From Sashavirus BDX09P1: a stretch of 58,371 nt of DNA. Shown piece after piece: positions 9,524 through 28,317 of this stretch (the stretch's first letter is position 1; every line of letters begins with the position of its first letter). The stretch lies in the sequence record OZ035775.1; one strand, 5' to 3'. The notes under the pieces were generated by a model that had not been told where the DNA came from, searched no databases, and saw nothing but the letters and a program-made list of their open reading frames with translations. The translations under genes and the position numbers were made by a program.

Positions 9524-9688
9524 ATGTGTTGTAGAACATCGTGTTGTCTGGGAAGTCCTGCTACGCAATTTGGTCTTCTTCAGTCACAGATTGCACATAC
9601 TCAGGCCGTTTTCAGAGGGTTTACCAGTCCGTTCATAGTACCATTACAGTTTTCCGCGTTCACGTTTAGACCTTTTGTATTTTACTGA
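9524..9688 (+). CDS. small Cys-rich peptide (54 aa)
   Basis: Below threshold; AAGGGGG RBS 6 bp before ATG; N-terminus MCCRTSCC. Confidence 0.3.
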   Translation: MCCRTSCCLGSPATQFGLLQSQIAHTQAVFRGFTSPFIVPLQFSAFTFRPFVFY

Positions 9689-9696
9689 TCGACTTT

Positions 9697-9723
9697 GCCC
9701 CGGACAGTTCCGGGGCTTTTTTT
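9697..9723 (+). terminator. intrinsic terminator ending the 7.6-9.7 kb operon
   Basis: GCCCCGG-acagtt-CCGGGGC + TTTTTTT. Confidence 0.65.
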
Positions 9724-10004
9724 CAACGTCTGAAAGATGAAAGAACAGCGAGGCTAACAGAACCTAAACCGAATATGACGGCGTATGTTAGCTGATGTTG
9801 AAGTTTCACAAAACCGTAATAATCGCTTTGTAATTCTACGATGTCAAAAGCAATTGAAAAACTGGTTACCAGCAACATGATTGAAAGAACACGAATCAGA
9901 GCAACTGCTAATCCTATCACCCCTTGTTCTTTTTTCTCAGTTGTAATAACGACAACAATCATTAACAGAAGTGAGAAAACAATATACATGTATTCCATAA
10001 TCAT
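9723..10004 (-). CDS. hypothetical membrane protein
   Basis: Two or three hydrophobic segments. Confidence 0.4.
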   Translation of the reverse strand: MIMEYMYIVFSLLLMIVVVITTEKKEQGVIGLAVALIRVLSIMLLVTSFSIAFDIVELQSDYYGFVKLQHQLTYAVIFGLGSVSLAVLSSFRR

Positions 10005-22984: not shown

Positions 22985-23338
22985 ATGCGTAATTCATATG
23001 ATCCGTCACTGAAATATGTTTTCACCCGTCCGATGCTGTGGAATGGTAAACAGATGTCCGCTGGCGATAAAGTATCAACATCAAAAGCTATCCCGGCTGT
23101 TTTAAATGCCCTTGTGCGTATGCGCCACATTGAACCAGCTACTGCGACCGTTGAAGAACCAGTGACTGTAGCAACCGAAGAATCGGTATCAACCACAGCT
23201 GCTGAAATCCGACGTGACGCGCCAAAAACCTATAACGTTTATGTTATGGGTATGCCGATGAATTCAGAATCATTCAGCAGTAAAAGTGCCGCTGCTGAAT
23301 GGTGTGAATCTCAAGGCTTGACATATAACTATTCTTGA
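22985..23338 (+). CDS. hypothetical head-associated protein
   Basis: Start moved to MRNSYDPS with GAGG RBS. Confidence 0.4.
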   Translation: MRNSYDPSLKYVFTRPMLWNGKQMSAGDKVSTSKAIPAVLNALVRMRHIEPATATVEEPVTVATEESVSTTAAEIRRDAPKTYNVYVMGMPMNSESFSSKSAAAEWCESQGLTYNYS

Positions 23339-23346
23339 CCTATTGT
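23318..23346 (+). promoter_or_regulatory. promoter-like element at 3' end of gene
   Basis: TTGACA-17 bp-TATTGT overlapping the stop codon, pointing into the non-coding island. Confidence 0.4.
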
Positions 23347-23352
23347 TAGTTG

Positions 23353-24053
23353 TAGATAGTTTTCGTGGCGACTTTGCGGACTTTTTAGAAACTGACCACA
23401 AAGATAAATGCAAACGAAGAACGTTTTCTGATGGCGGCGTAATAGCCTGTAAGTCAGCAAGGTCTTCCGATTCCTTGTAAATAAATTCGGCGCACTGGCC
23501 CGGTGTGATTAATAATGGGCACCCACGAATGAGAGTATTGTGATTGATCGTCGTTCTTGCGCGCAAAGTCTGCTCGAAGACAGTATTCTCATTCGTGGGT
23601 AACAACGGGCGTGTCGCCTTAGTAAATCCCTCAAGGGTGCAGCGAATAATCCGGTAATGTCGTTGCCGTAAGCCGCACGAAACGTGGCACACAACAGGTA
23701 AGAGCATTTGGTCAATGCGAAGTTATTCGCGCAGACGTAAGGCCTAATTGTCGGCAGTGCTCTTATCGTTGTGGTGAATTGCAGTTCTCAGAAACAACCA
23801 GAAGATAAGCGCCTGGCACTGCAACCCAAACACTCGCTGATAAGGAGGTGATCCTTATCTTGCTGGCGGGAAAGCCGCAAATCGTGGGTAAAGCATGTTG
23901 TGAAACATCCTGAACTGCGTGTCGTTTTACATAACTGGTTATTCACGTGTCACGCATAGGGGTATGTTGGGACGTCAGGTGTGGATGACCAGTTATGTAA
24001 AACCCTCATTATCACCCAGAGCCATTTGCCGTCTGTTTAAGACGGCTTTTTTT
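23353..24053 (+). ncRNA. candidate structured non-coding transcript
   Basis: ~700 bp with no credible ORF on either strand, GC-richer than surroundings, long imperfect hairpin (14-bp stem with G-U) at ~23517-23600, ends at strong terminator. Confidence 0.3.
24028..24053 (+). terminator. intrinsic terminator
   Basis: GCCGTCT-gttta-AGACGGC + 7 T. Confidence 0.7.
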
Positions 24054-24092
24054 CGTGCTAATATAACGAAAACATTTCTCACAGGTGATCAC

Positions 24093-24503
24093 ATGGCTAT
24101 TACAGTTGAAGGTATTCGTTATTTGATCAGTGTCCCTGATGTTACTGATGAACAAATTCAGTGGTACATTGACAACGGTTATACAAATCCTCTCAGTATT
24201 TGCGTTGCTCTCTGTGATTATATGGCGTCTATCGCCAGCAACGATACTGATATTAAAGTAGGTCCGATCTCACTCAGCAGTAGTCAGTCAGCAGACGCCT
24301 GGAATAAACTTAAAAAAGATTTTATTTTACGTATTAATACTGGCGCTGATTCAGGTGGTGGTTTGTTAGGTAGTTTTATGGGTGTTGGTGGAGCTACATT
24401 AACTGGCGCTGGTATGCAACCTGCTATTCAACGTGGTCAGTTCGACAACCCACCTGTAACACTTGAAAGCGGTGGTCGTGCACTTAACGAGGGTGAACGG
24501 TGA
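24093..24503 (+). CDS. putative head-tail connector / head completion protein
   Basis: Start at ATG with RBS; position between capsid and tail genes. Confidence 0.4.
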   Translation: MAITVEGIRYLISVPDVTDEQIQWYIDNGYTNPLSICVALCDYMASIASNDTDIKVGPISLSSSQSADAWNKLKKDFILRINTGADSGGGLLGSFMGVGGATLTGAGMQPAIQRGQFDNPPVTLESGGRALNEGER

Positions 24504-27754: not shown

Positions 27755-28050
27755 TCGACTTCCTCTTGTGGAACGATAAGACAGACGGGGACGACCTGGA
27801 CTGGGTTACACAAGGGGCGGCTGCACGTGGTATATCTGTTCCGGTTGTTGTACAGAAACGACCTAGATTGCGACCTGATGCTATATTTTTTTGGAATGCT
27901 TACGTGGATCTGATGGAAGCTGATTGGGTTGCTTGTGAGCGATATGCACGGGTGTATAACGTTGATGTACAATTCCTATGGAAATTATTGGTAGCGTTGC
28001 GGTCTGCACGTGTTGTCGAGATGAAGAAAAATAAACACAAGCCCGGTTAG
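27745..28050 (+). CDS. GT-like C-terminal extension reached by -1 frameshift
   Basis: -1 frame is open from 27745 and spans track ORF 27766-28050; heptamer A_AAA_AAC at 27745-27751 in the G frame. Confidence 0.5.
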   Translation, partial: KKLIDFLLWNDKTDGDDLDWVTQGAAARGISVPVVVQKRPRLRPDAIFFWNAYVDLMEADWVACERYARVYNVDVQFLWKLLVALRSARVVEMKKNKHKPG

Positions 28051-28063
28051 TTCCGGGCTTTTT
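28041..28063. terminator. hairpin terminator
   Basis: GCCCGG-ttagtt-CCGGGC + TTTTT; same hairpin sequence as near 781 and 1466. Confidence 0.55.
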
Positions 28064-28317
28064 CATTTATGTAGTCGAGGATTGCAGGAGAGTATTTAAA
28101 CCACTCTGTAGCACCGTCAAAACCTTTAAGACGCGCGTTAAGTTCGTGATAGACCTTGTGTACCTCTTGTTCCAGTTTATACGCGTCGGCGCCTTGTGGG
28201 AACGGATACGACACGAGTTTAACCACGGGGTGTGGAGTTCGTCGTTGTAGTTGTCGTAGTCGCTGTTTTAAGTCGTTTGTAATACCAACTTTAAGCAGAG
28301 TAGGACACTGTTTATCG

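Follow-up and report, generated by a model that had tools for sequence, protein, structure and literature searches.

The genome of the 9NA-like siphovirus BDX09P1 (Sashavirus; record OZ035775.1, 58,371 nucleotides (nt), the whole of which is referred to here as the window) carries, in a gap between two genes of its head cluster, a conserved RNA unit that resembles the template part of transfer-messenger RNA (tmRNA). The unit belongs to an RNA family with a conserved structure and the coding signature of a ten-codon peptide tag; it has no tRNA-like domain, and its 5' arm is complementary to the tmRNA of Escherichia coli. We propose, with about even confidence, that the phage RNA clamps the host tmRNA and supplies a replacement tag template, and that the two RNAs would then act as a hybrid two-piece tmRNA. 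The original prediction for this stretch, which described a structured non-coding island, had overlooked the tag template and its two pseudoknots, the central feature of the locus. The unit is made up of the following parts:

23352-23531, plus strand: conserved tag unit, with an anti-tmRNA arm, a tmRNA-like template, an H5 hairpin and two pseudoknots.
23357-23387, plus strand: 5' antisense arm, with four blocks complementary to E. coli tmRNA nt 68-106.
23357-23366: arm block UAGUUUUCGU, matching tmRNA A97-A106 (tag codons GAC GAA AAC UA).
23368-23373: arm block GCGACU, matching tmRNA A86-C91 (A86, the -1 triplet and the first two nucleotides of the resume codon).
23374-23379: arm block UUGCGG, matching tmRNA C75-A80 (3' strand of stem 2 of pseudoknot 1).
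23381-23387: arm block CUUUUUA, matching tmRNA U68-G74.
23388-23409, plus strand: linker, nearly invariant and single-stranded, ending in AUAAAU.
23410-23442, plus strand: tag frame, GCA AAC GAA GAA CGT TTT CTG ATG GCG GCG TAA = ANEERFLMAA*, followed by a second stop, TAG.
23428-23457, plus strand: H5-like hairpin enclosing the stop codon, outer stem CUGA/UCAG, inner stem GGC/GCC.
23458-23490, plus strand: pseudoknot A (PK2-like), stem 1 CAAGG (23458-62)/CCUUG (23473-77), stem 2 CCGA (23467-70)/UCGG (23487-90).
23491-23520, plus strand: pseudoknot B (PK3-like), stem 1 CGCACU (23491-96)/GGUGUG (23502-07), stem 2 GCCC (23498-501)/GGGC (23517-20).

The linker places a U at position -5 (23405) and an A at position -4 (23406) before the resume codon. 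These are the equivalents of U85 and A86 of E. coli tmRNA, both of which act in setting the frame, with A86 as the main frame-setting nucleotide (PMC2481249). AUAAAU followed by GCA is invariant in 57 non-redundant copies, and in phage P1 the sequence is GUAAAU followed by GCA. Throughout the 129 copies, which hold 31 distinct tag sequences, the tag is ten codons long with a stop at codon 11, and this stop may be UAA, UGA or UAG; neither of the other two frames across the tag has a constant length. Codon entropy is 1.08 at third positions compared with 0.56 at first and 0.51 at second positions, and all four GCN codons (GCG, GCU, GCC and GCA) are used for the last alanine. The P1 tag, ANDDLMMVAA, still has ten codons though its H5 hairpin has moved by two codons. 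Translation of the tag is suggested by the fixed length of ten codons, the varying stop and third positions that are about twice as variable as the others, a pattern which argues that the tag is under coding selection and read as codons. Ordinary translation of the tag was considered and rejected, there being neither a Shine-Dalgarno (SD) sequence nor an in-frame start codon, as was an overlapping AUG frame, the peptide of which is not conserved and varies in length.

Around and beyond the tag the copies share a common architecture, for which structures were counted in 93 distinct copies and pairing statistics were taken from an alignment of 57 sequences. The outer stem of H5 is CUGG/CCAG in 65 copies and CUGA/UCAG in 28, and is broken in none. 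Stem 1 of pseudoknot A is UGAGG/CCUCA in 52 and CAAGG/CCUUG in 40, while its stem 2 reads CCGA/UCGG (66 copies), CCAA/UUGG (24) or CCAG/CUGG (3). Pseudoknot B has a conserved loop, AUUAAUAAU, a stem 1 that occurs as CGCACU/GGUGUG and as three compensated variants, and a stem 2 that ranges from 4 to 8 base pairs (bp) and is complementary in nearly all distinct copies. The P1 copy differs in its stem sequences and has the same architecture, with pseudoknot B fully compensated. Covariation across related phages, suggested in the original prediction as a check on structure, is pronounced: 94.4% of cells pair, compared with 26-45% when partners are slid, and cells with a double change number 119, compared with 19 or fewer in the slid controls. 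None of 500 shuffles reaches the observed values, and the compensatory changes include G.U pairs. In the aligned copies we found no pseudoknot 1, no fourth pseudoknot and no conserved fold in the 5' region.

The Rfam scan, another suggested check, returned nothing at curated thresholds; when run permissively it returned tmRNA models only, over 23348-23491 (tmRNA_permuted, 27.8 against a threshold of 47; beta_tmRNA, 23.5 against a threshold of 84). These partial matches cover only the tag and pseudoknot part, model positions 206-304. Plain alignment of the unit with E. coli tmRNA is likewise weak (score 38 compared with 25.9 ± 4.2), and our own covariance model of the family, R1, finds a single copy in the window at 187.3 bits (E 8e-42). 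A tRNA-like domain is absent from the window. ARAGORN called no tRNA or tmRNA in the window, nor within -400 to +700 nt of 127 copies; Rfam gave no tRNA-clan match in the window even at E <= 5, and no T-loop motif in the window stood above chance. The RNA is not filed as a tmRNA because it fails both the test for a tRNA-like domain and the Rfam thresholds.

Elements that follow the unit in other phages were also considered as its tRNA-like domain. In four Ackermannviridae loci (L004, L006, L047 and L096) several tRNA-like elements follow one another between +120 and +370 downstream of the tag. Their T-arms are good and they end in NCCA, but their acceptor stems are mismatched or interrupted, they contain long insertions, and neither ARAGORN nor Rfam calls them; the mismatched acceptor stems led us to reject them. 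Phage wV8 (L005 1665-1743) carries a gene resembling tRNA-Arg(UCU), in which the D region is aberrant and the third acceptor pair is a G.U; the Rfam tRNA model scores it at 31.7 bits and ARAGORN misses it. It was rejected in turn, as Felix-O1-like relatives carry an ordinary tRNA-Arg at that position.

The most telling property of the 5' arm is its complementarity to nt 68-106 of the host tmRNA, a segment that spans the 3' strand of pseudoknot 1, A86, the resume codon and tag codons 3-6. With filters off, the best match of the family model in the E. coli ssrA locus lies on the antisense strand and is made via the 5' region of the model. We tested the arm alone against E. coli tmRNA. RNAduplex gave -32.9 kcal/mol compared with -13.4 ± 3.1 for 500 shuffled arms, with its optimum over the whole tmRNA at nt 67-107, and the reverse complement of 23356-23388 aligned with a score of 34, while none of 644 natural 363-nt chunks taken from the window scored above 21. 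RNAduplex with the full-length unit was uninformative, giving values no better than shuffles. The arm is 5'-terminal and almost unstructured (self-fold -2.6 kcal/mol), and it pairs more weakly with the phage's own template (-22.2 kcal/mol), in which the -1 triplet is AAU and codons 3-6 differ.

Each of the 58 distinct arms (129 copies) has its antisense match inside tmRNA nt 60-112 and includes A86-C91 in it, with a median of 29 complementary nucleotides and a median z of 7.3. The arms of Felix-O1-like phages, Vi01-like phages and P1 barely align with each other, yet they share the target site. Furthermore, the conserved blocks of the 5' region (AGUUUUCG, GCGACUUUGCGG and UUUUUA) are exactly the complementary ones, the variable linkers of the arms face tmRNA loops, and the variants are mostly wobble-compatible, with GCGGC, GUGGC and GCGAU in place of GCGAC all keeping their pairing. 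The window contains no second copy of the unit and no opposite-strand target apart from the arm's own complement. The arm therefore has the accessible, conserved and beyond-chance complementarity that defines a trans-acting antisense RNA, and we infer that it would form a duplex with tmRNA in vivo. The original suggestion of an antisense RNA or riboregulator was thus right in spirit, in that the element is a structured, non-coding RNA; its complementarity is to host tmRNA and to no phage gene.

In the mechanism that we propose, the unstructured 5' arm would pair with host tmRNA nt 68-106 and would mask the 3' strand of pseudoknot 1, the frame-setting U85 and A86, the resume codon and tag codons 3-6. 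Directly 3' of this clamp would lie a phage copy of the masked parts, namely the U at -5 and A at -4, the GCA resume codon and the ten-codon tag, to which the phage template would add the elements that follow a tag, a stop within an H5-like hairpin and two pseudoknots. The host tmRNA and SmpB would supply the alanine-charged tRNA-like domain and enter stalled ribosomes, translation would resume on the phage template, and the rescued proteins would receive the C-terminal end (A)ANEERFLMAA (for relatives, ...LAVA or ...LMAA) in place of the host degron ...YALAA. A clamp on the host tmRNA would explain how a template can be under coding selection with neither a tRNA-like domain nor a phage protein partner, and why it differs from the host's at the arm-paired positions (the -1 triplet and codons 3-6). 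In the host tag, the AAND..(F/Y) part binds the adaptor SspB and the ALAA end binds ClpX (PMC8512704); the phage tags keep the former part and have LAVA or LMAA in place of the ClpX-binding end. It is possible, though we hold this somewhat less firmly than the mechanism above, that a mobile RNA of ~170 nt turns the one-piece tmRNA of the hosts of enterobacterial phages into a host-virus hybrid by which every rescued protein is virus-tagged. The feature probably represents a new viral way to take over ribosome rescue.

Several points weigh against this proposal. The Rfam tmRNA scores lie far below the gathering thresholds, and the family model has no match to the sense strand of E. coli ssrA. 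The complementarity is split into four blocks of 6-10 bp with loops between them, the pairing requires stem 2 of tmRNA pseudoknot 1 to be opened, Felix-O1-like arms score lower (z about 3), and Salmonella tmRNA presumably differs at one position of the longest block. The ribosome would also have to resume on a template tethered by base pairs alone, and the known two-piece tmRNAs are joined differently. Finally, the C terminus of the tag (AVA or MAA) may still be a ClpXP degron.

The core of ~170 nt occurs in 760 phage records, from Drexlerviridae (T1-like), Skatevirus, Nonanavirus (9NA-like), an N4-like phage, Felixounavirus (Felix-O1-like), Ackermannviridae (Vi01-like) and P1, and in 437 plasmid records, mostly of ~95-100 kb, non-mobilizable and P1-like in size. 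Among complete E. coli genomes, 146 of 5,426 carry it, and the strict pattern was found in only one of 185,579 species-representative genomes. Almost all of the matches listed, among more than 1,300 matching records, are unannotated for the core, and in several genomes spurious calls of open reading frames (ORFs) cover the element. The RNA family is real and widespread, and has gone largely unannotated. The carriers to which the hybrid-tmRNA reading would apply include P1 and phages of the Felix-O1-like, Vi01-like, T1-like and 9NA-like groups, along with lambdoid prophages in E. coli O26:H11.

Only 23360-23520 recurs in practically every locus compared (as many as 127 of about 130), the rest of the island being common to a dozen loci or to 9NA-like phages only. 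Phage Sasha has the same promoter and 3' domain with a different 5' module; the island is therefore modular and the tag unit a mobile cassette. The surroundings of the unit vary: head genes in BDX09P1, tail genes to which it is antisense in Bas79, the leader of the ban operon in P1 and, in a lambdoid prophage of E. coli O26:H11 (one genome), the interval between tR' and the holin gene. No conserved protein partner accompanies it, and since the unit alone is common to the carriers, it must work with host factors.

The diverged P1 copy lies in the C1-controlled ban-operon leader, after a dicF-like region and before tRNA-Asn and tRNA-Thr, and is found by the R1 covariance model, which was built without P1 (88.7 bits, E 4e-19). 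At this locus (L132, NC_005856; 973-1542, equal to record positions 69472-70041) the minus-strand coding sequences plp and upl overlie conserved plus-strand RNA modules, including a hairpin-family member with a tRNA-like apex and a GUGGUGAAUGCRCAGGCUGAUGYGC motif; plp and upl may be mis-annotations. In the O26:H11 prophage (L137 3190-4215) the cassette comes directly after PR', a 6S-like leader and tR', and before the holin gene. This is the slot where Stx phages carry tRNA genes and stx. Expression of the cassette from this position would be Q-dependent and late.

Besides the tag unit, the island and its borders contain the following features:

22985-23338: upstream ORF, phrog_19242, a small gene after the major capsid gene.
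23318-23346, plus strand: sigma-70 type promoter, TTGACA-17-TATTGT, with 10/12 consensus positions.
23521-23600, plus strand: hairpin with a 21-bp stem, a variant of the module-bounding hairpin family, common to Skatevirus Bas77-81 and about 12 loci.
23601-23689, plus strand: four small hairpins, common to about 10-13 loci.
23690-23773, plus strand: canonical hairpin-family member, CACAAC-A-GG-U-AAGAGCAUU ... CAGUGCUCUU-AUC-GUUGUG, with a variable apex; z -4.1.
23774-24027, plus strand: 3' domain specific to 9NA-like phages, including hairpins 23839-23859 and 23924-24003.
24028-24053, plus strand: intrinsic terminator, GCCGTCT-GTTTA-AGACGGC + T7, with a 7-bp GC-rich stem and seven T.
24093-24503: downstream ORF, phrog_21889, the next gene of the structural cluster.

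The promoter and terminator stand as originally predicted. The spacer of the former overlaps the upstream TGA stop (23336-23338), and the pattern by itself is not above chance (2 sites found compared with 2.3 expected); support comes from its position, because similarity to unrelated phages sets in shortly after it, at about 23354, and a promoter of their own occupies the same spot in T1-like and Felix-O1-like copies. An identical promoter is found in Sasha and AVIO78A, and the transcript should start at ~23352-23355. The terminator is kept in all 9NA-like relatives, and the fold of the whole 716 nt has a z of -6.15 compared with shuffles. Judged by sequence, the island appears to be a structured, non-coding, independently transcribed RNA, in effect a self-contained RNA operon with its own predicted promoter, an RNA of ~700 nt and a terminator.

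The long hairpin that had been described within the island is real and larger than first drawn, with a perfect 21-bp stem (23521-23541/23580-23600; z -5.96) and TTGCGCGCAA (23557-23566) in its apex. It does not mark a special site of BDX09P1, for it belongs to a family of hairpins that bounds RNA modules in unrelated phages. These are built from a lower stem, an A bulge, GG/CC, a U.U, AAGAGCAUU/AGUGCUCUU and a variable apex, and show compensatory changes in many loci. The member at 23690-23773 (stem about 19 bp) is also present in Sasha, AVIO78A and P1, and the fold energy of the intervening module, 23601-23689, is not above chance (z +0.66). Hairpins of 19-21 bp are of the right size for RNase III, and the two island stems of 21 and about 19 bp reach the RNase III-type size (~20 bp or more) and are conserved as helices. 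Hairpin 23521-23600 is thus a likely RNase III-type processing site that would make the 3' end of the tag unit, and the unit is probably freed from a long primary transcript at the 19-21 bp hairpins that follow it; the family as a whole may be a processing signal or a recombination joint.

In the 3' domain, a core at 23830-23920 is conserved in 9NA, SP069, Sasha and AVIO78A despite differing flanks, and the long hairpin at 23924-24003, with which the island's hairpins of 19-21 bp number three, has a z of -4.4. The SD-like string that had been pointed out here, TAAGGAGGTGATCC at 23841-23854, is real and lies inside the 8-bp hairpin 23839-23859. Half-buried in this hairpin, UAAGGAGGUGAUCC is a perfect 14-nt complement of nt 1529-1542 of E. 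coli 16S ribosomal RNA (rRNA), its extreme 3' end. No conserved ORF follows the string, and a 17-codon ORF after it has 3 non-synonymous and 1 synonymous changes; instead of a ribosome-binding site, the string could be a sponge for the anti-SD sequence or serve to tether ribosomes. When the other island modules were compared with 16S, 23S and 5S rRNA, tRNA-Ile, tRNA-Ala and tmRNA, only the match to the 3' end of 16S rRNA exceeded the antisense null. On the reading of a host-virus hybrid tmRNA, which we rate somewhat below an even chance, the island of 9NA-like phages, with the 16S complement on the same transcript, would be a small set of RNAs directed at the translation machinery of the host. 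Elsewhere in the window, Rfam gave weak sub-threshold matches to STnc480 (37.7 bits, 9658-9727, minus strand) and Trp_leader (30.7 bits, 27983-28066, plus strand).

The explanation that comes closest to the clamp-and-template proposal is that the RNA is purely an inhibitor, whose arm binds host tmRNA and shuts down tagging or trans-translation while the phage tag frame is never read, perhaps with the mimic part titrating SmpB or S1. The antisense evidence for it is identical, masking of A86 and the resume codon should block frame selection (PMC2481249), and there is a precedent in the tRNA-like-domain-only RNA of mycobacteriophage DS6A, reported to inhibit tmRNA (PMC4131195). Inhibition alone, however, leaves unexplained why there are exactly ten codons, a persistent stop of changing identity, variable third positions and four synonymous alanine codons, why the P1 frame is kept through a rearrangement, and why H5 and two pseudoknots are retained; we regard it as rather unlikely, although it is the rival to be taken most seriously. 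Decidedly less probable is a decoy that does not pair with tmRNA at all, a mimic of its mRNA-like domain and pseudoknots that sequesters SmpB, ribosomal protein S1, RNase R or a nuclease of a defence system. The arm would then owe its complementarity, as a relic, to a captured ssrA fragment that had undergone inverted duplication. The tmRNA-like architecture would suit such a decoy, and phage mimics of host or defence RNAs are known, pseudo-ToxI being an example. A relic would decay, yet the 58 distinct arms all keep their target with wobble-compatible changes and conserve precisely the complementary blocks, and the coding signature is left unaccounted for. A complete phage tmRNA in disguise, self-charged, is very improbable. 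One source of its acceptor end would be the flanking hairpin, AAGAGCAUUG/CAGUGCUCUU, whose third pair is a G.U, once the apex had been excised; the other would be the 3' pseudoknot. The hairpin G.U has the right orientation, the 3' strand then continues with UCC(A) in some loci, and a few apexes (P1, L009 and L019) have a D-like hairpin and a GGUUCGAAUCC T-loop. Such an apex is, however, found in only 6 of 127 loci and P1, the apexes lack sequence conservation (those of the window and Sasha differ, for example), and no downstream hairpin was detected in Pollock. The G.U is G:C or A:U in several loci, and alanine identity from this pair was accordingly rejected. A plant-virus-like pseudoknotted acceptor formed from pseudoknot B was rejected as well, given an inconsistent CCA and a stem 2 whose 4 to 8 bp misfit a fixed acceptor geometry. 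We also rejected long-range closure of an upstream AGUGCUCUU with a downstream AAGAGCAUU as an acceptor or P2 helix, since each 5' strand pairs with the next 3' strand. The lower stems differ between hairpins yet stay complementary (CUAUC/GAUAG and CACAAC/GUUGUG), with which a variant in L012 concurs, and the window lacks an upstream copy.

The remaining explanations look to the locus itself, where the gap between the flanking genes (23339-24092, 754 nt) holds no credible gene, as first predicted, its conserved ten-codon tag frame at 23410-23442 being the exception to the view that it is ORF-free. The island was also thought to be GC-richer than its surroundings, which is marginal, as its values of 0.44-0.50 exceed those downstream (0.38-0.41) and not those upstream (0.46-0.53). 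The location in the head gene cluster and the dense hairpins could fit either antisense regulation of the adjacent phage genes or, as originally suggested, a DNA site acting in cis, for instance pac/ori. In other phages, however, the position of the conserved unit in the genome is unrelated and its orientation goes either way, its sequence changes compensate as in an RNA, G.U pairs included, and, as noted above, the window offers neither a second copy nor an opposite-strand target; we consider this reading remote. Most improbable of all is a protein gene, intact or decayed. The longest ORF of the gap, 145 amino acids on the minus strand (23270-23707), is annotated as the hypothetical PJ16_048 in Escherichia phage vB_EcoS_PJ16, to which BDX09P1 is 99.5% identical over the 1-kb region compared, and similar ORFs are annotated in Bas79 (Bas79_0054 and Bas79_0055; L007 1456-1982, minus strand). 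No PHROG family matches the 145-residue ORF, which shares 69 nt with the upstream gene and crosses RNA conserved on the plus strand, to which conservation and covariation fit, and these ORF calls look spurious. Decay of a gene, the refutation envisaged originally, finds no support in the relatives Sasha, 9NA and AVIO78A, which hold other RNA modules here and no gene.

If the clamp-and-template proposal is true, this would be the first virus to reprogramme trans-translation by RNA-RNA pairing instead of encoding a tmRNA of its own, and the first tag template to work without a covalently or genetically linked tRNA-like domain. It would become testable whether a ribosome resumes on a template merely base-paired to tmRNA, and what role the degron part of the tag plays during infection. 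Phages that serve as models or in therapy carry the element (P1, relatives of Felix O1, Vi01-like and T1-like phages), as do prophages of Shiga-toxin-producing E. coli O26:H11 strains. Furthermore, an RNA of ~170 nt acting in this way would be a ready-made tool for programmable C-terminal tagging via ribosome rescue.

Although the phage RNA cannot be charged, lacking an acceptor stem, T-arm and CCA, it displays individual features of tmRNA (SsrA; RF00023), namely U-5/A-4 before GCA, a ten-codon tag of the form AN(D/E)(D/E/N)xx...A, a stop inside H5, H-type pseudoknots directly after H5 and an A/U-rich loop in the second of these. It further appears to differ in having an unstructured arm in place of pseudoknot 1 and only two downstream pseudoknots, and its tags end in LAVA or LMAA where the host tag ends in ALAA. 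Another parallel is with the two-piece permuted tmRNAs of alpha- and beta-proteobacteria and cyanobacteria (RF01849-51, RF04321), in which, as proposed here, the tRNA-like domain is on one of two base-paired RNAs and the tag template on its partner; it is the beta-proteobacterial coding piece that gives the phage RNA its best Rfam match. The known pieces, however, derive from one gene in one organism and are joined by acceptor and P2 helices, whereas the phage case would bring together host and virus pieces through an antisense clamp over the host template.

Papers on the tmRNA database report phage tmRNAs only in mycobacteriophages, Bacillus phage G and similar phages, together with a form consisting of the tRNA-like domain alone. 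Among open-access papers and preprints, including those on the tmRNA database and the BASEL collection, we found no anti-tmRNA RNA and no template without a tRNA-like domain. The genes of the mycobacteriophage Bxz1 group, Bacillus phage G and DS6A are likewise phage genes acting on trans-translation, and the partial tmRNA of DS6A can interfere with the host system (PMC4131195). Those are complete tmRNAs or the tRNA-like half, whereas the RNA described here is the other half with an antisense arm and belongs to phages of Enterobacterales. Analogous in a different respect are phage and prophage antisense small RNAs such as DicF, which also use a short unstructured seed against a host RNA and are carried as cassettes in polycistronic transcripts with processing hairpins; a dicF-like region lies just upstream of the P1 copy. 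Unlike these, the phage RNA would target a stable non-coding RNA of translation rather than an mRNA, and it carries with it a translatable replacement template.

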